From: Dictyostelium discoideum
Taxonomy: Eukaryota
DNA: 64,000 nucleotides
NCBI GenBank assembly: GCA_000004695.1
Contig: CM000150.2
Coordinates: forward strand, 4,576,001-4,640,000
Direction: 5' to 3'
The notes beneath the pieces were generated by a model. The model worked only from the letters and a program-made list of their open reading frames with translations, searched no databases and was not told the DNA's origin. Positions 8,063 through 53,156 of the stretch are shown here, piece by piece. A program made the translations under genes and the position numbers. Each line of letters opens with the position of its first letter. Position 1 is the first letter of the stretch.

Positions 8063-8168
8063 ATGGATAATAACACATTTGAAACAATTTTAATTGGAGG
8101 TGGAGCTTCAGGTTCATTATCTGCAATTAACATTGAAAAAAAGCATCAAGTTTTATTGTTGGAAAAAG
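8063..8168 (+). pseudogene. Orphan N-terminal exon/fragment of an FAD/NAD(P)-binding oxidoreductase (MDNNTFETILIGGGASGSLSAINIEKKHQVLLLEKG), followed by a GTAATG donor; no downstream exons found
   Basis: ATG 8063 opens a Rossmann dinucleotide-binding motif (GGGxSG) and ends at an apparent splice donor at 8169. The next 1.2 kb is low-complexity A-rich sequence and an AT-rich tandem repeat with no coding continuation. Confidence 0.25.
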
Positions 8169-8459
8169 GTAATGAATTATTTCCTACATGTAGTTCCACT
8201 ACATGGAAGTTCTTTTAAAATTCACACTGGATTTCATCATGTTCGTGATCTAAAAAAAAAAATTATGAAAAAAAAAAAAAGTAAAAAAAAAAAAGTAAAA
8301 AAAAAAAAAAAAAAGTTAAAAAAAAAAAAAAAAAAAAAAAAGGTTAAAAAAAAAAAAACGTTTGAAAATATAGTAAAAATGGATAAAAAAAAAAAGAAAA
8401 TAAAAAAATAAAAAAAAAACCAAGTTCAAAATTAATAAAATTTTGCTTGTTTTCGCATA

Positions 8460-9060
8460 TTTATTCTTATAATATATCTTATTTTTATTAATTCAATTCC
8501 TATATTTTTTAAAATAATAAAAAGTTTCATTTAAAATATATATTTTTTTTTTTTTATAAAATTTATTATTTTTTATCTTATTTTTTATCTTATTTTTTAG
8601 GGATTACTTATATTTTAATAAAATATGTTGAATATTATAAAATTTTCCAATTTATAATTTATTTTTTTATTTTTTAAACATCTTATTTTTAAAACCATAA
8701 TTAATAAAATTTATAACCTTCTTATATATTATCTCATTTTTTTAGTATTTATTATATTTTAATAAAATATGTTAAAAATTATATAATGTTTCAATTTTTA
8801 ATATATTTTATTATTTTTTTTATTATTATTTATCTTAATTTTTAATATATTTTATTAAAAAATAATAAAGGTTACATTTTTTATAAAATATCCTATTTTC
8901 TAATAATTATTATAATTATTTTTTAAAAAAAATAACCCCGAATTAATAAAATTTAAAAATTCTAATATATTTTCTTATTTTTTAGTATTAATTAAATTTT
9001 AATAAAAAATGCCATTTTTTTTTTTATAATAAGTTTCATTTTTTATAAAATTTATTTTTT
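8460..9060. repeat. Degenerate AT-rich tandem repeat (about 130-240 bp units) with the recurring core 'TATTTTAATAAAATATGTT'
   Basis: The core recurs at about 8601, 8751 and 8990 with similar flanks ('ttttttagtatt(a/t)att(a)tattttaataaaa'). Confidence 0.35.
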
Positions 9061-9331
9061 TTATTTTTTTGTTATTATTAATCTTATTTTGTAATAATTT
9101 TTATTAATTTATAAAATAGCATTACAAACTTTTATTAAAATTTAATTTAATTAATTATATTTTAACATTTTAATAGGTTTTTTTTTCCAGTGTTATATTT
9201 TTGTTTAAAAAAAAAAAAAAATTATTATTATAATCAAATAATTAAATAATGGTATGTATTTATTTTAGTGTGGGAAAATTGTAAGGGTGGATGTAAATTT
9301 CGGCATTAAAGTGGTGAAAGTAATTTTGTGG

Positions 9332-9364
<33 letters not shown>

Positions 9365-9772
9365 TTATTATTAATTTGTTTTTAAATTTCAAATGATTTT
9401 TATTTGATTTAATCCAATCATATGTAATTAATTTTAATAATCCCTGTATTAATATTTTATCATCTGATAAATTTTTGAAAAAAATACTAAAAGACAATAA
9501 AAAAAAAAAAAATTAAAAAGTAATAATAATTAGCAAAAACAAAAAAAAAGAAAAAAAACAGTTCTTTGTTTAGTTTTTTTTTTTTCTTTTTTTTTTGTAA
9601 ATAATTCTTTAATAAATTTAAATTAAAACTTTCACACGAAAAAATCTGCCGGCATCCGGATATGAAATTTTCATTTTTTAGAAGATGAATTATTTCAATG
9701 AACACTGCCTTAATTAGTCATATGGGCCAACAAAAAATAAGAATTATCTTTCTTTATCGAGACCTATTGGAA

Positions 9773-9884
<112 letters not shown>

Positions 9885-10185
9885 TATTGGTTTTTTATTA
9901 ATAATAATGATGGTGATAATAATAATAATAATAATAATGTATTAGTTTTTTATTAATAATAGACCCAATTGGAGAGTGCTAAACTACGAGCCTGTAAGTA
10001 ATTATCTCACAAATTTTAAATCTGAATTATTATTGTTTTTTTTTTAATTATTTATTAATATTATTTTTTTTATTATTATTTATTTTTTTTTTTTTTTTTT
10101 GCCTAGGTATTTAAAAAAAAAAAAAAATTAAAAAAAAAAAAAAAAAATTAATTTAATTCTTAAATAATTATTTTAAATTGTAAAA

Positions 10186-11127
<942 letters not shown>

Positions 11128-11613: not shown

Positions 11614-14316
<2,703 letters not shown>

Positions 14317-14926
14317 TCAATTTTTAATATTGTTTAATGTGGTTGGTATTAATTTTAGGAGTAAAAAAAAAAAAAACATTGTTTAGTTCAAATCGCCATT
14401 CTCTCGCACAAAACCTAAAAATATAAAAATATTTGAAAAAAAAAATAAAAAATAAATTATTAAAAAAAAAAAAAAAAAAAATCAGGCGACCAGTGGCAAA
14501 AATAAAAATAAAACAAAAAACAAAAAAAAACAAAAAAAGGTCAAAAAAACAAAAATAAAAAAAAAATTAAAAATAAAAAAAAAATTATCTGGTTAAAGAG
14601 TTTTTTTTTTTAAATATTTGATTATTACCACTGGTACTATTGTAATACCCAGAATGAAATTAAAAAAACAATTTCATTCCTTTTTTCTTTTTGTTTTTTT
14701 TTAAAATTTGTAAAAAAAAAAAAAAAAAAATTAAAAAAACAAAAAAAATAAAAATAAAAAATCGATCACATATAATTTATAAATATTTATAACTATAATT
14801 AATTTATTTTTAATAAAAAAAAAAAATCTTCATTTATTATATTTTTTTTTAAAAAAATAATATTTTATTTCTTTTTTTATTTTTTTCTATACAATAAAAA
14901 AAAAAAGATTTTTTAAAAAAAAAAAA

Positions 14927-16864
14927 ATGGAAAGAAATTTATTAAATTGGTTATTTTTAAAAGGAAAAATTGATGGTGATTGGATTTTAGAATATGTAAA
15001 GAATTTATCAGAAAATGGTTTACATATATCATTAAAATCACTTTATTTATATTGTAAATTTCAAATTAATTTTATTGAGGAAGAAAAATTTGTAAATTCT
15101 TATTTAATTAAAGAATTGGAACAAATTAACTCATTAAAAGATAATCATGAATTTATATATAGTATTCATGATAATTTTATTAAAAATAAAATCAAAGAAT
15201 TAGAAAAATGTTTTAATAATAAAAAAGAAATTGAAAATTTTACAAAACAACTATTAATTTGTTTGGATATAATTAGAAATAATAAAAAATTATTAATTAA
15301 AAATGAAAATTTTAATTATTTTAATTTAAAAAATAGTGAACAAAGTGGTGAAACTTTTTTAAACAATATCTGGAGAAATGGTTTAATTAAAGAGAAAATA
15401 ATTTATTATTTATCAATTTTTAAAAATAATAGATTTAAAAAGAAATTTACATCAATTAAAGAATTGGAACAATATAAATTTAAAGATTTTTTAGATTATG
15501 TTGAATTATCACTACCAAATAATAATAATAATAACAATCAAGATAGTGAATTTATAAATGATTATTTAGAGAATCAATTACCATTGTCAATTAGAAAATT
15601 ACAAATTAATAGTAATTTTTATAGTGGTGGTTATTATTATCAAGGTCAACCATATACAAGATATATTAAACCTTTATCAATATCACCATCTGTAACTTAT
15701 TTAGATTTTAGTTGCCATGATGAAATAAATTCTCAAATTAATATGAAATATGTTGATTTTAATTTACCAATTTTAGAAAATTATTTTTTTTTAAAAAATA
15801 ATAAAGATCAACAACAACAACAACAAGTTACATTTAAAATATTACATTTTAATACAAATTTTGATTCAAAAATTAATATTGGTGTTATTCCAGAAGGTGT
15901 TGAAACTATTGATTATACTACAGGTTGTAATCCAAGAGATGGTTTACTAAAATCTGAACAATTTCCAAAATCTTTAAAAACTTTAAATTTCAAAAGATTA
16001 AATTATGAACCACTTAAAAAAGATGATTTATATTGTAAAAATCAAACATTACCAACAACAATTACAAATTTATACTATGATACAAATACTATAATTGATG
16101 TAAATTTCTTTCCTCAATCAATTACAATTTTAAAATTGGGTAATACAAATTTAAGTTATGGTGGTTCAATGGATATATTAAAAGCTGGTGTTTTACCATC
16201 GAAATTGATTGAATTGGATCTTGGTGGTTATTTTAATGAAATTGAGGAAAATGTATTACCATCAACTTTAAAATCGTTAACATTGTGTGATGGATATATT
16301 AAAACTATTAAACCAAGATGTTTACCAAACTCATTGGAATATCTTTCATTTCACGGTGACGATAGTGTTGTACCAAAAGTAAATGATGGAATGCAATATT
16401 TAACATTGAAATCAGTTTTCAAAAAGAATCAACCATGTTTAATTAAAGGTTCATTACCAATTGGTTTAAAAACTTTAAAGCTATCTTCTCGTCAATCATT
16501 TTTAGATATATTAATACCAGATGTAATAACAAAATCACATTGCTCATTAACTAAACTATCAATTATTCAACATAAAATCTATGATTATCAAGATCAACTT
16601 GAATTATCAGAAGAAGGAACTACCTTAAAAATTAATAATTGGAAAAATTTAAAATTTAAATTACCACCAAATGTTAAAATAATTAAATACTTTTCAAATA
16701 GATATTTTCAATTTTTAGATAATTCCTTACCATTAACTCATTTTAAAACTCACTCTAAAACTGAATTTCTTTATAATTCTGATCCAAATTATTCAATATC
16801 TTTAAAAATGTGTAAAGATCATGTATTATCTCATACTAGTTATAAAAATAATAAAATAAAATAA
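14927..16864 (+). CDS. FNIP-repeat-containing protein, paralog 3 (645 aa)
   Basis: MERNLLNWLFLKGKIDGDWILEYVKNLSENGLHISLKSLY matches the paralogs. It carries the same FNIP-like LPxSL repeats and lacks the poly-Ser insertion. Confidence 0.7.
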   Translation: MERNLLNWLFLKGKIDGDWILEYVKNLSENGLHISLKSLYLYCKFQINFIEEEKFVNSYLIKELEQINSLKDNHEFIYSIHDNFIKNKIKELEKCFNNKKEIENFTKQLLICLDIIRNNKKLLIKNENFNYFNLKNSEQSGETFLNNIWRNGLIKEKIIYYLSIFKNNRFKKKFTSIKELEQYKFKDFLDYVELSLPNNNNNNNQDSEFINDYLENQLPLSIRKLQINSNFYSGGYYYQGQPYTRYIKPLSISPSVTYLDFSCHDEINSQINMKYVDFNLPILENYFFLKNNKDQQQQQQVTFKILHFNTNFDSKINIGVIPEGVETIDYTTGCNPRDGLLKSEQFPKSLKTLNFKRLNYEPLKKDDLYCKNQTLPTTITNLYYDTNTIIDVNFFPQSITILKLGNTNLSYGGSMDILKAGVLPSKLIELDLGGYFNEIEENVLPSTLKSLTLCDGYIKTIKPRCLPNSLEYLSFHGDDSVVPKVNDGMQYLTLKSVFKKNQPCLIKGSLPIGLKTLKLSSRQSFLDILIPDVITKSHCSLTKLSIIQHKIYDYQDQLELSEEGTTLKINNWKNLKFKLPPNVKIIKYFSNRYFQFLDNSLPLTHFKTHSKTEFLYNSDPNYSISLKMCKDHVLSHTSYKNNKIK

Positions 16865-17024
16865 ATTAAGTAATTAAAAAAAAAAAAGAATCAATTTAAT
16901 ATAATTTAATTCGATAAAACTAAAATAGATAATTTACAAAAAAAGAAAAGAGTAGATATATATACATATAGTTTGGAACACAAATTTTAAAATAATAGAT
17001 AATTTGGATGTTTTTTATTTATTT

Positions 17025-17070
<46 letters not shown>

Positions 17071-17104
17071 CTTTACTTGGTCAAAAGAAATCTACTAGTT
17101 TAAT

Positions 17105-17521
17105 TTATTTTGTGTAAACGAGATCAGTGATTGAGAAAATTGCTGGTTCTGAACCTTTAGTAATATAACCGAAAGTGAATGTGGTGTTAAATGCTAAACC
17201 GATTTGTGAAATGTATTGTGGGAAATGTAATTTTGCATGTTGTAAATCTTTTGGAATTGCTTCTACAAAGTCTAATTTCCAAAGATCAGATCTTCTTTGA
17301 ATGTTAAAATTGGATTCTGGTATTATAGTTGCATCATAAACCATTGATGTTCCAGTATTGGTTACAGTAGCAACATAGATAGAATAAGATATATCTTGAT
17401 CAGTCCATGTTGAATTTTTCATTTGAGAAATTGTTAATTGCATTGCTTGATTTTCACCATAAACTGCAAATGAAAACATTGCAATCATAAAAGTAATTAA
17501 TAAAATATGTTTGATCATCAT
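17105..17521 (-). CDS. Secreted 138-aa protein, tandem copy 1 (signal peptide + about 115-aa beta-rich domain, possibly carbohydrate-binding)
   Basis: This is an intact ORF (MMIKHILLITFMIAMFSFAVYG|ENQAMQLTISQMKNSTWTDQDISYSIYVATVTNTGTS...). It has a clear signal peptide. A CBM-like function is only a guess. Confidence 0.7.
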   Translation of the reverse strand: MMIKHILLITFMIAMFSFAVYGENQAMQLTISQMKNSTWTDQDISYSIYVATVTNTGTSMVYDATIIPESNFNIQRRSDLWKLDFVEAIPKDLQHAKLHFPQYISQIGLAFNTTFTFGYITKGSEPAIFSITDLVYTK

Positions 17522-18431
17522 TTTTAATAATTTTCTTTTTTTTATTTTTTTTTATTTAAGATCTTTAATTAAATTTTAATTTTTAATGTTTTTAAGAAAT
17601 AAGTAATTTTACTTTGTTTTTTTTTTTTAATGATTTAGAGAAAAAAAAAAATTCTTAAATAGTTTTTTTTTTTTTTTTTTTTTAAATAATAAATAAAAAA
17701 ATTCTTATATTATTATTTACAAGTTTTAAAATAATTAATGTAAAATATATAAAATATTTATAAAAATAGTATGCATAATGGCAGTATAATGATATAATAC
17801 CACTTAAAAAAGTATAAATTTTTAAAAAAAAAATGAAAATGTGGTAAAAAGTGGTAAAAATGATTAATATGATTAAATTAATGATTAAAAAAAAAAAATT
17901 TGGTAAAAACTAAATTGTAATGTGAAAATTGGTGACCTATTGTTTTTAATAATAATTAATTGTATTTTTTTTTTTTTTTTTTTTTTTGTATTAAATCATT
18001 TTTTATTACTTATTTGTTTTAAATGAGTTAAAAAAAAAAAAAAAAAAATAGAATAAAATATAAAAGGATTTTTAAAAAAAAAAACTGAATAATTAAATTT
18101 GAAAAAAAAAAAAAAAACGAACCCGATCCAACTAGTGAGAACAAGTTTTTGTAAGAAATTCAAATTTATTTTGAATATATTTTTTTTTTTTTTTTTTTAT
18201 TTTGGCTTACCCACAAACAATTACATTATATAAAATTTTATTAGATAAATAAAAAAAAAAAAAAAAATAAGAAATGAATAGATATTATCTAAACATTGAT
18301 TTAAGGCTGATATGGATAATTTCAAAAACTCATTTTTGGTATTAAAATAGATAATATGGACATTACAAATTTATTTGGTTTTTTTTTTTTTTTTTTTTTT
18401 TACTTTGTCAAAAGAAATCTACTGTTTCAAT

Positions 18432-18848
18432 TTATTTTGTGTAAACGAGATCAGTGATTGAGAAAATTGCTGGTTCTGAACCTTTAGTAATATAACCGAA
18501 AGTGAATGTGGTGTTAAATGCTAAACCGATTTGTGAAATGTATTGTGGGAAATGTAATTTTGCATGTTGTAAATCTTTTGGAATTGCTTCTACAAAGTCT
18601 AATTTCCATAGATCAGATCTTCTTTGAATGTTGAAATTGGATTCTGGTATTATAGTTGCATCATAAACCATTGATGTTCCAGTATTGATTACAGTAGCAA
18701 CATAGATAGAATAAGATATATCTTGATCAGTCCATGTGGAATTTTTCATTTGAGAAATTGTTAATTGCATTGCTTGATTCTCACCATAAACTGCGAATGA
18801 AAACATTGCAATCATAAAAGTAATTAATAAAATATGTTTGATCATCAT
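18432..18848 (-). CDS. Secreted 138-aa protein, tandem copy 2
   Basis: It is identical to copy 1 except T54I and I67 (2 aa differences). Confidence 0.7.
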   Translation of the reverse strand: MMIKHILLITFMIAMFSFAVYGENQAMQLTISQMKNSTWTDQDISYSIYVATVINTGTSMVYDATIIPESNFNIQRRSDLWKLDFVEAIPKDLQHAKLHFPQYISQIGLAFNTTFTFGYITKGSEPAIFSITDLVYTK

Positions 18849-18988
18849 TTTTAGTATAATTATTTTTTTTTTTTTATTTAAGATCTTTAATTAAAATTTG
18901 ATTTTTAATGTTTTTAAGAAATAAGTAATTTTACTTTGTTTTTTTTTTTTAATGATTTAAAGAAAAAAAAAAAATTAAATAGTATTTT

Positions 18989-19040
<52 letters not shown>

Positions 19041-19362
19041 AATAAAAAAATTCTTATATTGCTATTTACAAATTTTAAAATAATAAATGCACAATAGAAA
19101 AATATTTATTAAAATGGTATGCATACTGGCAGTATAATGATATAATAATATTACTTAAAAAAGTATAAATATTTAATAAAATAAAAATGTGGTAAAAATG
19201 ATTAATATGATTAAATTAATGATAAAAAAAAAAAATTTATAAAAATTAAATTGTAAAATGAAAATATAAAAAATTGGTGACCTTTTGCTTATATTAATAA
19301 CTTATTGTATTTTTTTATTTTTGGATTAATTAATTATTTATTTGTGTAAATGAGTTAAAGCG

Positions 19363-19398
<36 letters not shown>

Positions 19399-19761
19399 TG
19401 AACATATCAAAGGATTTTAAAAAAAAAACCTGAAAATTAAATTTGAGAAATAAAAATAACTCCACCCAACCAATGAGAACAAATTTCTGTAAGAAACCCA
19501 AATTTATTTTGGATTTTTTTTTTGTGATTCAATAAACAATGAACATTTTATTTTTGTATTGCATAAAACTTTAATAGATAATTAAAAAAAAAAAAAAAAA
19601 AAAATGAATAGATATTATCTAAACATTGATTTAAGGCTGATATGGATAATTTCAAAAACTCATTTTTGGTATTAAAATAGATAATATGGACATTACAAAT
19701 TTATTTGGTTTTTTTTTTTTTTTTTTTTTTTACTTTGCCAAAAGAAATCTACTGTTTTAAT

Positions 19762-20175
19762 TTATTTTGTGTAAACGAGATCAGTGATTGAAAAAATTGC
19801 TGGTTCTGAACCTTTAGTAATGTAACCGAAAGTGAATGTGGTGTTAAATGCTAAACCGATTTGTGAAATGTATTGTGGGAAATGTAATTTTGCATGTTGT
19901 AAATCTTTTGGAATTGCTTCTACAAAGTCTAATTTCCATAGATCGGATCTTCTTTGAATGTTGAAATTGGATTCTGGTGTTATAGTTGCATCATAAACCA
20001 TTGATGTTCCAGTATTGATTACAGTAGCAACATAGATAGAATAAGATATATCTTGATCAGTCCATGTTGAATTTTTCATTTGAGAAATTGTTAATTGCAT
20101 TGCTTGATTTTCACCATAAACTGCAAATGAAAACATTACAATCATAAAAGTAATTAATAAAATATGTTTGATCAT
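19762..20175 (-). CDS. Secreted 137-aa protein, tandem copy 3 (first of the MM pair lost)
   Basis: Same protein with a 3-nt deletion at the start codon region (ATCATCAT to ATCAT..), A13V, and a shorter 5' flank. Confidence 0.65.
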   Translation of the reverse strand: MIKHILLITFMIVMFSFAVYGENQAMQLTISQMKNSTWTDQDISYSIYVATVINTGTSMVYDATITPESNFNIQRRSDLWKLDFVEAIPKDLQHAKLHFPQYISQIGLAFNTTFTFGYITKGSEPAIFSITDLVYTK

Positions 20176-20963
20176 TTTAAGTATAATTTGTTTTTTATTT
20201 AAGATCTTTAATTAAATATTAATTTTTAATGTTTTTAAGAAATAAGTAATTTTACTTTGTTTTTTTTTTAATGATTTAAAGAAAAAAAAAAATCTCTTAA
20301 ATAGGATTTTTTTTTTTTTTTTTTTTTTTTTAAATAATAAATAGAAAAATTCTTATATTATTATTTACAAATTTTAAAATTATAAATATACAATAAAAAT
20401 TTTAATAGAAATAGTATGCATAATGGCAGTATAATGATATTATATAATGATATTTTATAATACCACTTAAAAAAGTATAAAATTTTTATAAAATAAAAAT
20501 GTTGTAAAAAGTGGTAAAAATGATTAATATGACTAAAAAAAAAAAATTTATAAAAATTAAATTGTAAAGTGAAAACTTTAAAATGGGTAACCTATCGTTT
20601 ATAATAATAATTAATTGTATTTTTTTTTTTTTTTTTTTTTTTAATTAATTATTAATTTGTTTAAATGAGTGAAAAAAATAAAAAAAAAAAAAAAAAAATA
20701 GGTGAACAAATCTGTTTTTAAAAAAAAACCTGAAAATTAAATTTGAAAAATAAAAATAAGAAATCCAATTTTTTTTTTTTGAATATCCAAAAACAAAGAC
20801 ACATTTTATCTTGGTATTGTATAAAACTTTAATAGATAATTTTAAAAAAAAAAAAAAAATATGAATAGATATTATCTAAACATTGATTTAAGGCTTATAT
20901 GGATAATTTCAAAAACTCATTTTTGGTATTAAAATAGATAATATAGACGTTACAAATTTATTT

Positions 20964-21002
<39 letters not shown>

Positions 21003-21028
21003 GGCCAAAAGAAATCTACTGTTTTAAT

Positions 21029-21445
21029 TTATTTTGTGTAAACGAGATCAGTGATTGAGAAAATTGCTGGTTCTAAACCTTTAGTAATATAACCGAAAGT
21101 GAATGTGGTGTTAAATGCTAAACCGATTTGTGAAATGTATTGTGGGAAATGTAATTTTGCATGTTGTAAATCTTTTGGAATTGCTTCTACAAAGTCTAAT
21201 TTCCAAAGATCAGATCTTCTTTGAATGTTGAAATTGGATTCTGGTGTTATAGTTGCATCATAAACCATTGATGTTCCAGTATTGGTTACAGTAGCAACAT
21301 AGATAGAATAAGATATATCTTGATCAGTCCATGTTGAATTTTTCATTTGAGAAATTGTTAATTGCATTGCTTGATTTTCACCGTATACTGCGAATGAAAA
21401 CATTGCAATCATAAAAGTAATTAATAAAATATTTTTGATCATCAT
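21029..21445 (-). CDS. Secreted 138-aa protein, tandem copy 4
   Basis: Same protein with H5N and S124L substitutions. Confidence 0.7.
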   Translation of the reverse strand: MMIKNILLITFMIAMFSFAVYGENQAMQLTISQMKNSTWTDQDISYSIYVATVTNTGTSMVYDATITPESNFNIQRRSDLWKLDFVEAIPKDLQHAKLHFPQYISQIGLAFNTTFTFGYITKGLEPAIFSITDLVYTK

Positions 21446-22953
21446 TTTTGATAGGTTTTTTTTTAGATTTTTTATTAAAGTTTAATTGTTTTTAAGAAAT
21501 AAGTAATTTTACTTTGTTTTTTTTTTTTTAATGATTTAAAGAAAAAAAAAAATTTCTTAAATAGTTATTTTTTTTTTTTTTTTTTTTTATAAATAATTTC
21601 TTGTTATAATTATTTACAAATTTTAAAATAATTAATGTAAAATATATAAAATATTTATAGAAATAGTATATGCATGATGGCAGTATAATGATATTTAAAT
21701 AAAATTGTGGTAAAAAGTGGTAAAAATGATTAATATGATTAAAAAAAAAAAAAAAAAAAATTACCAAAAAAATTAATAAAAACTAAATTGTAGAGTGAAA
21801 AATGGGTGACATATCGTTTATAATAAAAATAAATTGCATGTTTAAATAAAATAATAATAAAAAAAGAAAATTTTGAATAAATAAAAAAGATATATAAATA
21901 TTTCAACTTTACACAAACAAATATAATATAGTTTAAAAACTAATAAATTTTTGGTGTATATATGAGAATTAACTTCTTTTTTTTTTTTTTTTTTTTTTTG
22001 TTAAAGAAATAAAACAATAATTATTTGGAAAATTCCAAAATCAATTTGGAATTTGGAAATATCAAAATATTTTAGCTATTGACTTAGAACATTACTAAAA
22101 CCAATTGAATATTTTTGGTAGTGGAAATATTAAAATAATTATATTTAATGATAATTTAATTTTTATAACCATGCACTTCCTCACAACAAAATGTATATGA
22201 ATGAATTAAAAAAAAAAAAATAAAAAAATTATTTAAAGTTGACACCAAATTGGGACATTATAGTTGGAAAAATAAAAAAGATTACGAGGTGATTCTAGCT
22301 TGCTTATTTAAAAAAAAAAAATAATAAAAAAAAAAATAAAAAATAAAAATAAAAAAAATATCTCAAGTATGCGACGTTAGAATAATGCGTGCCCCGTGAA
22401 AAAAAGAGTATTGTTTTTTCAAAAAAAAAAAATTCAAAAAAAATTAAAAATTAAAAAAAAAATTCCAAACTTAGATTCTATCTTGATAAAAATCCCTCGT
22501 AGTTGTATTTTCTTTTTTTCCCATCATTTATTTTTATTTTTTTTTATTTTTTTTTTTTTATTTTATTTTTTTTTTTTTTATTTTGCCTCTACTTTCTAAT
22601 TAGCTCTTAATAAATTTCTTTCTAAATTTCAATATTGAGCAATTGCTATGATTGAAAATATCTAATTTTTTTTCCTTTTTTTTACAACATTGTTTCACCA
22701 ACAGGCAAAATTTTTTAAAAAAGGATTAAGAAAAAAAAAAAAAAAAAAAAATTTTTACCATTAATGTTAAATAAAAAGTTTTATTTAACAAATAAATAAA
22801 AACTAAATAACATATAAATAAATAATAATAATTTAAATTCTTGTATATATATAAAATAAAATAAAATAAAATAAAATAAAATAAAATAAAATAAAATAAA
22901 ATAAATATAAAATAAAATATAAATAAAATAAATATAAAATAAATAAATATAAA

Positions 22954-24449
22954 ATGAAAATATTTAATAAATTAATATTTTTAATAATTCAATGTATATT
23001 AATAATAAGTGTAACAAATGCTCAAGTTGATTGTGGTGGTACGGATAATCCATATCCAATTTATAATGAATTACCAGTTTTAATAAATCAAACTACCTAT
23101 GGCAAATTATATAAAATTGGTCCACCTGATAATTTAATAAATATAATAGAATTATATGGTACCCCATATCAAAGAGGTTTAGCACAAGGTCAATTATTAA
23201 AATCTGAAATTAATGATATTTTTGATAACTTTTTTGGTTATATTACAGTCATGGTAAATGAATTAGTTACAAAAGTTTGTATTAATTTAATTTTATTTTT
23301 AATTTTATTTAATAAATTTAATATTGACTTTTTTTTTTTTATAATAAAAATAATAATAATAGTATGCAGATTATTTACCAAAATTTTTAGTTGATGCACT
23401 TGAAGAGGGTGGTGTTGGATTAGCATTAGATATTACAGCAGATTTAACAAAGAAATATACACCAAAATCATTTTTTGAAGAAATGCAAGGTATTGCTGAT
23501 GGAAGTGGTATTGAATATAAAACAATTTTAAGGTAATTATTATAATTATATTTATATATTTATTTATTTATTAATTATTAATTATTAATTTTTTTTTTTT
23601 TTTTTTTAAAAACAATTAGATTACATATGTTCCCAGAATTAATTAAAGCAGCTTGTTCAATGGTTGGTGCATATAATTCAGCAACACTTAATAAAGGATT
23701 ATTACAATTACGAGCATTAGATTTTGGATTTGATCCAATGAATCCATTAAGACTTCATCCAACAGTAATGATTTATCATCCAGAATCAGTTAGTGCAGGT
23801 GGTGATGGTGGTCATGAATTTGCTACATTATCATGGGCAGGATTTTTAGGTACTCTTACTGGTTATAGTCAACATGTTGGTATTTGTGAAAAATATTGGT
23901 TTGGTTATAATGGCACAAGTTCACGTGAAGGTATTCCATTCCATTTCTTATTACGTGAGATTATTCAATTTGATGAATCAATTGATGAGGCATTAAATCG
24001 TATTATTAATGCTGATAGAACTTGCTCGGTTTTCATGGGTTTAGGTAGTAATCAAACTAATACTTTTAAAGCAGTCGAATATTCTTATGAATACGTTAGA
24101 GTATTTGATGATCAAACTCCATTCCCATCCTATGTTCCAACTCCTTCTGCTCATCCAGTAATTCAAGATGTAGTTTATATTGATAAATTCGTCCAACCAA
24201 GTAATCACCAATGTTTAGCTTCAGTTCTTCAAAAATCACTTGGTTCAATTGATGTAACCTCTTTAATCAATGCTGCCGCTCAATTACAAACTGGTGATAT
24301 TCATATTGGTATCTATGATTATCAACAAAATCAAATGTATGTTAGTGTTGGTACTCAATCTGGTCCATATCCACCACCTTCAAATTTCACTATAGTTCCA
24401 GCATATGCCAGACAATTTATTCAAATTGATTTAAATTCATTTTTTAATC

Positions 24450-24454
<5 letters not shown>
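22954..24454 (+). CDS. Secreted Ntn-hydrolase-like protein (acid ceramidase / peptidase C45 acyl-CoA:6-APA acyltransferase-like), 3 exons: join(22954..23253,23363..23532,23620..24454), about 434 aa
   Basis: Exon 1 has a signal peptide (MKIFNKLIFLIIQCILIISVTNA) ending at the GTAAAT donor at 23254. Intron 1 ends at the TAG acceptor at 23362; intron 2 is 23533(GTAATT)..23619(TAG). Phase is consistent throughout. 'LIKAA|CSMVG' is a candidate autoprocessing site exposing an N-terminal Cys nucleophile. The family assignment is tentative. Confidence 0.5.
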
Positions 24455-52418: not shown

Positions 52419-53156
52419 TTAGTTATCTGGAGCAGACCATTCAGCAATTGGTTGTTGAGTGAATTCAACAGCTTCAACGGCAGCAACTGGAGCGGCAGCA
52501 ACAGCGGCGGTTTTTTCTTTTTCTGGTTCTTCATCAGTATCTCTGTAGATGAAGAGATCGACTTTGACAGACCAGGTGGTGTTTCTTGGGATGGTACCTC
52601 TTAAGTATAAAACTTCACGAGCTAATAACCAGAACATTAAGGCAATTGAGTTTTTACCACGGTTGTTACATGGGATAGCAATATCAACACCGTCTAAACA
52701 TGAGGTGGTATCACAGAGAGCGATGGTTGGGATATTTACGTATGAAGCTTCCATTAATGGTTGTTTATCTAATAATGGATCAGCAACAATCAAAAGTCTT
52801 GGTTCAGTGAATTTTGATTGGATTTGATTGGTAAAGGTACCTGGGGTGAAACGACCAGAGAAAGCGGTGGCACCGATAAAGTTGGCGAATTTGAGGACGG
52901 CACGTTGACCCAATGGTTTGGCAGAGATAACTGAGATATCAGCTGGGTTTTCAATAGCAACGATGACACGAGCAGCTAATTGAATCTTTTCCCAAGTTTT
53001 GGCAAGATTGATGATGAAGTGACCATTATCCTTTCTCTTCCAGGTGTATGATTCCATTTCAACATCAACGTTGTTACCACCGAGATGGGTTTGACAAGCT
53101 AACATCTTTAAGATATCATCTTGATGTGGGTTTAATGCAGCTGGGAATTGAGTCAT
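52419..53156 (-). CDS. rpsA: 40S ribosomal protein SA (p40 / laminin-receptor homolog), 245 aa
   Basis: [42 protein letters not shown]...[19 protein letters not shown] carries the conserved RPSA/uS2 core. It shows the strong GC3 codon bias typical of highly expressed Dictyostelium genes. It appears to be a single exon here. Confidence 0.9.

Follow-up and report, generated by a model that had tools for sequence, protein, structure and literature searches.

A tandem array of small CBM49 genes in Dictyostelium discoideum: probable stalk-matrix proteins with coding regions evolving in concert

Why should a small gene for a secreted protein stand four times, head to tail, at one place in a genome, and with its copies still so nearly alike? 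The question is raised by a 64,000-nucleotide stretch of Dictyostelium discoideum DNA (assembly GCA_000004695.1, contig CM000150.2, positions 4,576,001 to 4,640,000 of the forward strand), a stretch which in its entirety is described here as the window. An initial annotation, made from the letters of the window alone, had noticed such an array and had viewed it as a product of very recent amplification or else of ongoing gene conversion, that is, as a sign of dosage selection on a secreted factor. The answer that is arrived at here is that this probably is a tandem array that is old and varies in copy number, that encodes a cellulose-binding protein of the stalk matrix similar to St15, and that has coding regions which have evolved in concert. 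The array thus belongs to a known kind, of which it is a tidy if ordinary instance with low-to-moderate interest, and no new kind of protein, element or mechanism comes to light. What it offers is a clean, well-resolved case in which a matrix gene of a simple multicellular organism expands in tandem and stays uniform by short-tract conversion.

Concerted evolution of the coding regions

The array consists of four minus-strand genes, with open reading frames (ORFs) and tblastn in agreement that there are exactly four copies within the window, as had been initially described. I use here the letters a to d for these copies in gene orientation, a thus being the first and d the last. Copy a (21029-21445; DDB_G0270294 / EAL72497 / Q55BZ6) is an ORF of 138 amino acids (aa), identical to P0007. 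Copy b (19762-20175; DDB_G0270292) is a 137-aa ORF, with P0008 (137 aa) and P0014 (124 aa) as its two versions. Copy c (18432-18848; DDB_G0270290 / EAL72495 / Q55BZ8), also of 138 aa, is identical to P0001, and copy d (17105-17521; DDB_G0270288 / EAL72494 / Q55BZ9), again of 138 aa, is an exact match to P0006. Read in coordinate order the lengths are 138, 138, 137 and 138 aa, which bears out the 138-aa signal-peptide protein and 116-aa mature domain that had been described, as well as the shortening at the initiator of the third copy, i.e., copy b, which has one ATG fewer. The ORFs are exact matches to D. discoideum AX4 proteins EAL72494-97 / XP_646682-85 / Q55BZ9-Q55BZ6, all four of which bear the database name ‘cellulose-binding domain-containing protein’. 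The locus tags, DDB_G0270288, 290, 292 and 294, were assigned via supplementary tables of published data.

From start to start the units are spaced by 1327, 1330 and 1267 nucleotides (nt). Between the genes, as delimited by spacer alignments and likewise read on the minus strand, are spacers a-b (20176-21028, ~850 nt), b-c (18849-19761, 913 nt) and c-d (17522-18431, 910 nt). The last of these accommodates both the 3' flanking sequence of copy c and the promoter of its neighbor, copy d, and is the oldest spacer, common to several strains. Downstream of copy d is the native 3' flank of the array (16865-17104, minus strand, 240 nt), which extends up to the stop codon of a convergent FNIP-repeat gene, DDB_G0270286 (14927-16864). 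Upon BLAST of spacers versus flanks (with dust filtering and length cut-offs), clear repetition of this flank in the spacers is limited to its first 60-120 nt. At the other end, where copy a adjoins dcd1A (DDB_G0270296), it is the native upstream region of copy a (21446-21845, minus strand) of which ~400 nt has been duplicated into each spacer, with 3' portions of the spacers aligning to -398..-11 of that region at 70-78% identity.

Likeness among these copies is uneven. Coding sequences differ between copies at 6-11 of 414 nt (97.3-98.6% identity), with 15 sites polymorphic among the AX4 copies, while for the three spacers between copies identity is 92.5-94.1% over aligned columns and 75-78% when indels are included. 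Whole units are 94.0-95.4% identical in aligned columns, or 82-84% with indels. An earlier statement of more than 95% identity, spacer included, thus is incorrect. Similarly, that copies should differ by 1-3 substitutions is close for proteins, which differ by 1-4 residues, but not for DNA.

Copy number varies as well. The syntenic site is defined here by a 441-aa dcd1A-like gene on one side and the FNIP gene on the other, with CBM49 genes between them, and copies were counted by tblastn. AX4 and a second D. discoideum assembly, GCA_054883475.1, possess four copies at this site, GCA_054859355.1 and GCA_054859385.1 (here, 355 and 385) three each, and the ‘D. cf. discoideum’ assemblies GCA_054859205.1 and GCA_054859235.1 (here, cf205 and cf235) two each. 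Copy number in D. discoideum and cf. discoideum, in other words, goes 4, 4, 3, 3, 2, 2. D. citrinum, D. dimigraforme and D. firmibasis, by contrast, each have a single copy. None of these copies is pseudogenised; every one seen, in every strain, is intact.

The c-d spacer of AX4 is, as judged from alignment, orthologous to the b-c spacers of 355 and 385 (89% and 87% identity, respectively) and to the sole spacer of cf205 (83%), in each case with indels counted; remaining spacer pairs, cf235 apart, are 72-80% identical. The cf235 spacer is different. It is 1447 nt long, is just 38-41% identical to every other spacer and includes ~916 nt of duplicated upstream sequence. Its size and low identity, along with a different duplication unit, therefore point to an independent duplication at the same locus. 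This two-copy array is found at 8137-10417 of its own locus, with a unit of 1864 nt.

It is in comparing coding with upstream sequences that the history of the array becomes apparent. In a tree of coding sequences, clades form by genome, with 100% bootstrap for AX4 a-d and 100% for each ‘cf.’ pair, and with 0% for clades by position. In a tree of the 420 nt upstream, clades instead form by position: the last copies of AX4, 355 and 385 (d, c and c, respectively) group at 100%, and all non-first copies, including copy b of cf205, at 99%. First-copy upstream regions group across strains with 54-77% bootstrap, and clades by genome receive 0% for AX4, for the 355 plus 385 pair and for cf205, and 15% for cf235. 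It is only between about +110 and +460, counting from the ATG, that paralogues resemble each other more than they do their positional orthologues; elsewhere orthologues are closer. Differences that are fixed array-wide number from 6 sites (AX4 versus 355) to 23 (AX4 versus cf235), about half or more of them synonymous, and in the site-by-site comparisons of AX4 with 355 and with cf205 all fall within nt 126-393. Sites that are polymorphic within an array, 15 in AX4 and 11 in 355, have none in common.

Parallel mutation cannot account for such a pattern; what can is gene conversion, or some equivalent form of unequal exchange that is restricted to the coding region. Upstream sequences that group by position together with coding sequences that group by genome thus imply an array that is old and coding sequences that have been homogenized. 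That is, the coding regions of this array have evolved in concert. As with classic concerted tandem arrays, copies within a genome are nearer to one another than to their counterparts by position, orthology is preserved in the flanks and substitutions become fixed array-wide. There is nothing unusual in how this array compares with those, its conversion tract being short (~350 nt) and limited to the coding part and proximal 3' untranslated region. The ratio of nonsynonymous to synonymous divergence (dN/dS) is 0.05-0.28 across all comparisons, and the protein therefore is under purifying selection.

The history that we would propose is as follows. The ancestor that D. discoideum has in common with D. 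citrinum, D. dimigraforme and D. firmibasis would have had a single copy at the locus, with duplication occurring prior to the divergence of D. discoideum from one ‘cf. discoideum’ lineage, and with three to four copies arising later. Gene conversion, over approximately +110 to +460 from the ATG, would then repeatedly have homogenized that part of the genes encoding the mature domain, the spacers presumably diverging in the meantime.

The product and its expression in the stalk

A profile search, one of the ways forward envisaged initially, places the protein. Array products are members of the CBM49 family: Pfam CBM49 (PF09478) matches at 41.6 bits versus a gathering cut-off of 23.4 (E=1.6e-10), with residues 29-121 falling on profile positions 1-79 of 80, and this is the sole Pfam domain; the relatives that were found likewise all carry precomputed PF09478. 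The N-terminus, with K4, hydrophobic residues 6-20 (a 15-residue core of mean Kyte-Doolittle hydropathy 2.64) and then AVYG|ENQ, looks like a signal peptide, for a predicted mature part of 116 aa. That mature domain has no cysteine and has two N-glycosylation sequons, N36 and N112. Its predicted fold is beta-rich, with structural similarity to CBM2 cellulose- and chitin-binding modules that is only weak, and a sequence profile search of PDB found no relative with a solved structure, the sole match, multicystatin (E=0.73), being treated as chance.

An exhaustive phmmer search against 1.84 billion representative proteins yielded 14 relatives at E<=1e-3. Twelve of these are of 117-165 aa, and two, lacking a source name, are long multi-repeat proteins of 1062 and 825 aa. 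Those with source names are all dictyostelid (Dictyostelium, Polysphondylium, Tieghemostelium, Synstelium and Acytostelium). The initial annotation had named, as a ground for its own refutation, a well-characterized family with a mundane single-copy distribution. Half of this applies: the family indeed is well characterized, but members are present in many copies in the genome rather than as single copies.

One of the relatives is St15 (EAL61319 = DDB_G0292218), with which the array protein aligns over the full length (31% identity, E=6e-21). Both consist of a signal peptide plus one CBM49 module with no other domain (121-122 aa for the St15 cluster versus 138 aa for the array), both are active in the stalk lineage when culmination takes place, and both are found as tandem clusters of small CBM49 genes. 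The St15 cluster (EAL61319-EAL61321; ACTFIR_003300-003302) is outside of the window and is its own tandem cluster of small single-CBM49 genes. Array proteins are 31-44% identical to that cluster and differ in possessing 4-residue and 7-residue insertions. They differ too in that array paralogues are 97-98% identical, i.e., homogenized, whereas St15-cluster members P0005, P0038 and P0040 have visibly diverged. More broadly, CBM49 as a family was founded on the C-terminal module of the tomato endoglucanase SlCel9C1. The array module resembles the family in matching the profile above its curated threshold over the whole domain, with a beta-rich fold predicted, but is stand-alone, without a catalytic domain, and has two conserved Trp replaced by Tyr. 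A further parallel is with the Luke lectins of the Acanthamoeba castellanii cyst wall, which also are secreted, non-catalytic CBM49 proteins of a multigene family, and abundant wall components of a cellulose-containing resting structure (PMC6541295), though of another organism and another structure, a cyst wall versus a stalk.

Expression is known from published data, for RNA the supplements of Kin et al. 2018 (PMC6198379) and for protein a life-cycle proteome (PMC12821622). All four genes are on the ‘Stalk’, i.e., stalk-specific, sheet, are silent until 12-16 h and peak at 20 h, which is culmination (PMC6198379). Over 0, 4, 8, 12, 16, 20 and 24 h the values are 0, 0, 0, 0, 17.2, 61.6 and 18.7 for copy a (DDB_G0270294), 0, 0, 0, 0, 12.7, 42.8 and 7.8 for copy b (DDB_G0270292), 0, 0, 0, 0, 2.1, 11.3 and 2.9 for copy c (DDB_G0270290) and 0, 0, 0, 0.2, 0.9, 15.3 and 3.2 for copy d (DDB_G0270288) (PMC6198379). 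In purified stalk, mean transcripts per million (TPM), with ranges in parentheses, are 9.1 for copy a (6.9-13.0), 5.5 for b (3.8-7.4), 3.3 for c (2.0-5.1) and 3.3 for d (2.8-3.8), versus prespore values of 0, prestalk values of 0-1.9, and spore, cup and vegetative TPM of about 1 or less (spore, 0.3-1.0) (PMC6198379). DDB_G0270288 protein is seen in fruiting bodies only, at 1.6e8 and 9.9e7, a level comparable to that of StaA (1.6e8, 2.3e8) and SP85 (1.9e8, 7.3e8), while DDB_G0270294 protein is seen at culmination (2.0e7 and 1.3e7) and also in fruiting bodies, so that array protein is confined to these two stages (PMC12821622).

All four copies, then, are transcribed, stalk-enriched and at their peak at 20 h, which answers the question of stage that had been raised initially. 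Along the array, 20 h mRNA declines as a > b > c ≈ d (61.6, 42.8, 11.3 and 15.3, respectively), copy a having both the highest mRNA and the full native upstream region; as these paralogues are 98% identical, both per-gene values and this gradient are approximate, and the gradient could be real or instead a mapping artefact among near-identical copies. More generally, RNA-seq and proteomic quantification of array genes probably is biased by multi-mapping.

The initial suggestion had been of a small carbohydrate-binding or spore-coat/matrix module. The CBM49 match sustains a small secreted carbohydrate-binding matrix protein. A spore-coat role, of the SP85/PsB type, is rejected, given prespore values of 0, low spore TPM and stalk enrichment; also, proteins of that type are Cys-rich or multi-domain, while the mature domain here has no cysteine. 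In both architecture (the ~12-15 kDa class) and late stalk-lineage expression the proteins instead resemble St15-like stalk matrix. The genes themselves, though annotated and present in public expression tables, received no main-text mention upon searching literature by UniProt accession and locus tag, just entries in supplementary tables, and they represent an uncharacterized member of a known family.

Upstream of each gene is a shared block which is a candidate core promoter and 5' untranslated region. In copy d, by shared-block alignment, it spans 17594-17731 (minus strand), with CAAAGTAAAATTACTTATTTCTT at 17594-17616, a TATA-like CTATTTAAGA at 17653-17662 and TTTTAAAAYTTGTAAATA at 17714-17731. 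Homologous blocks, by alignment and likewise on the minus strand, fall within 18916-19080 (copy c), 20237-20379 (copy b) and 21494-21628 (copy a). Over the 230 nt upstream that were aligned, the order toward the ATG is TTTTAAAAYTTGTAAATA, an A-run, the TATA-like CTATTTAAGA, an oligo-T run, TTTAAATCATT and then CAAAGTAAAATTACTTATTTCTT. Core promoters in Dictyostelium usually have a TATA box and then an oligo-T run. These blocks are common to all copies and largely kept in D. citrinum, D. dimigraforme and D. firmibasis, and over -164..-69 divergence is low in paralogue and orthologue comparisons alike. They thus would seem, going by conservation and layout, to act as promoter. A hidden RNA gene does not account for spacer conservation, as the window lacks tRNA genes and 14000-24000 yielded no Rfam match.

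What is envisaged, therefore, is an array in which each gene would have its own copy of a conserved core promoter and would be turned on in stalk-lineage cells at culmination. The product would be secreted and most likely would bind to microfibrils of cellulose, whether in the stalk tube or in the walls of stalk cells, doing so via a face with four conserved aromatic positions, W39, Y49, W81 and Y103, and thereby contributing to the stalk matrix in a structural or coating capacity. Cellulose binding in this case is by analogy to relatives: direct cellulose binding has been stated for St15, StaB, CelB, EcmC and EcmD (PMC12821622), and single-CBM49 Dictyostelium proteins have been reported to be cellulose-binding (PMC6541295).

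Competing explanations

Certain points weigh against this picture. Cellulose binding by these proteins, and with it the role in the stalk wall, is presumptive. Trp is retained at just two of the four positions typical of Dictyostelium CBM49s. Stalk mRNA is modest, 3-13 TPM. With copies that are 98% identical, neither reads nor peptides can be assigned without ambiguity. The duplication unit of cf235 differs, so the history of the locus is not one clean series. Lastly, any benefit of extra copies, as through higher dosage, is hypothetical.

It is this last point upon which the strongest competing explanation bears, i.e., as to why the array exists at all. With neutral copy-number variation, unequal crossing-over changes the array, conversion is a passive by-product and copies are kept functional without dosage selection. 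Neutral turnover is a serious rival, with a substantial chance of being correct even if it is not what we favor. Close strains range from two to four copies, and cf235 supplies a second, independent duplication. St15 too is found in a tandem cluster, and cellulose-binding matrix families have been described as displaying ‘extensive gene gain and loss’ (PMC9117722). Against it are that all copies are intact in all strains with dN/dS well below 1, that all four are transcribed from conserved promoters, and that copy number increases stepwise toward D. discoideum, with no pseudogenised copy seen, none of which is decisive. Dosage selection on the array is plausible but unproven.

Bolder versions of the adaptive argument can be entertained as well, though these we consider rather improbable. 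The range of one to four copies might represent an adaptive, still-segregating dosage polymorphism, by which the mechanics or durability of the stalk would be tuned via how much cellulose-coating protein is made, conversion keeping the product uniform; or the Trp-to-Tyr changes and insertions might represent a new ligand specificity. The existence of natural strains with two, three or four copies, in an organism that is a tractable model, makes the dosage hypothesis testable.

A somewhat related alternative is that cellulose is not the ligand, and that the module instead binds a different glycan or polymers of microbial walls and might, for instance, protect the stalk as a lectin. Of the four positions at which St15 has Trp, two are kept invariantly (W39 and W81), while the remaining two carry Tyr (Y49 and Y103), still aromatic but a departure from the four conserved surface Trp of Dictyostelium single-CBM49 proteins (three in tomato SlCBM49; PMC6541295). 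The array subfamily also has a 7-residue insertion, VEAIPKD (86-92), and loops longer than those of St15, and Acanthamoeba CBM49 lectins bind chitin besides cellulose (PMC6541295). Such a ligand nonetheless is unlikely: nearest characterized relatives bind cellulose, stalk-specific expression at culmination coincides with cellulose deposition, and stalk-specific genes are enriched for cellulose-binding matrix proteins (PMC6198379).

The spacers raise a different possibility, that of a functional regulatory or processing element common to the units. The initial annotation had noticed a palindrome, TAGATATTATCTA, which it placed in each unit and viewed as a candidate shared signal. It is present in three of the four AX4 units, at 18279, 19609 and 20866 (in gene orientation reading TAGATAATATCTA), and resides within a 33-nt insert found only in spacers. 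That insert is CCTTAAATCAATGTTTAGATAATATCTATTCAT in gene orientation, at 18274-18306 with its palindrome at 18279-18291, and recurs at 19604-19636 and 20861-20893. In favor of function, the palindrome is without a mismatch in each AX4 spacer, as it is in the spacers of three further D. discoideum assemblies; in these four assemblies it lies 141-151 nt past the stop codon of every non-last copy. It also contains back-to-back GATA-type cores, with TTATCT/AGATAA found at 2.34 per kb in the array versus 1.19 in the window, a post-hoc observation of which the significance is not established. The insert is absent, however, after the last copy, from all single-copy species, which presumably express the gene regardless, and from cf235, and is imperfect in cf205, such that both two-copy strains lack the palindrome. 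Copy a, moreover, lacks such an element upstream but is the copy with the most mRNA. Nor is the palindrome statistically unusual, as the window has 140 perfect palindromes of 6+1+6 form (in 36 of which two or more letters are G/C), and its repetition follows simply from the spacer having been duplicated. As a shared signal it is quite doubtful, and is rejected here as unsupported.

Likewise seen post hoc, TTATCTAT, which has the GATA-type core AGATAA on its other strand, is found as an exact 8-mer one or two times 3' of each gene (16925-20941). Alignment of the 3' flanks shows additional variant copies.

That very recent amplification alone, without gene conversion, should explain the likeness of the copies is highly improbable. 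High coding identity is what speaks for it. Spacers and upstream regions, however, are far more diverged than coding sequences. Upstream regions are positionally orthologous across strains (99-100% bootstrap), as is the last spacer of AX4, of the two three-copy strains and of the two-copy cf205, and the synonymous differences that are fixed array-wide between genomes require homogenization. Thus, of the two possibilities offered initially, it is conversion that survives, on the strength of coding clades by genome (100%), upstream clades by position and 6-23 fixed differences, and recent amplification that is rejected.

As for an artefact of assembly, raised as well initially, with a single-copy gene wrongly collapsed or expanded in the reference, this has essentially no chance of being correct and is rejected, no supporting point having been found and with the same four copies present in the independent GCA_054883475.1 (4 substitutions plus 54 gapped nt over 4.8 kb), three or two syntenic copies in other assemblies, 15 coding-sequence sites plus spacers differing among copies and expression values reported per gene. 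The gaps between the AX4 and GCA_054883475.1 arrays are almost all in homopolymer run lengths, as could reflect either real slippage or sequencing error in A/T runs.

Annotation and neighboring genes

The practical consequence of this work for annotation is with regard to copy b. The AX4 model of DDB_G0270292 (EAL72496 / Q55BZ7, 124 aa) begins at an internal Met and appears to be short of most of its signal peptide. An in-frame ATG gives 137 aa, and a newer annotation, KAM9940652.1, uses that 137-aa start. The model of the D. citrinum orthologue also is 124 aa, yet the tblastn alignment reaches residue 1.

Tandem Repeats Finder, with a longest period of 500 nt, did not report the array, its output being homopolymer or low-complexity rows only. 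A weak tblastn match at 52764-53060 (E=1.2) is considered to be chance, as it is inside of an ORF that, from a reading of its sequence, resembles a ribosomal protein SA gene.

The window has a GC content of 20.8% and contains FNIP-repeat genes (Pfam). Two of these, at 11614-14316 (+) and 14927-16864 (+), are adjacent and have similar N-termini, MERNL..WL.LKG..DWILE.., and so constitute a second tandem paralogue pair beside the array. The more distal of the two contains a 46-unit ATC repeat, encoding poly-Ser, at 14019-14156, and gene content past the proximal FNIP gene differs among species. On the other side of the array, ORFs at 22954-23394 and 23627-24454 (+), ~230 nt apart, look like two exons of dcd1A (acid-ceramidase-like, DDB_G0270296) and display a weak Pfam AAT match (E=0.008).

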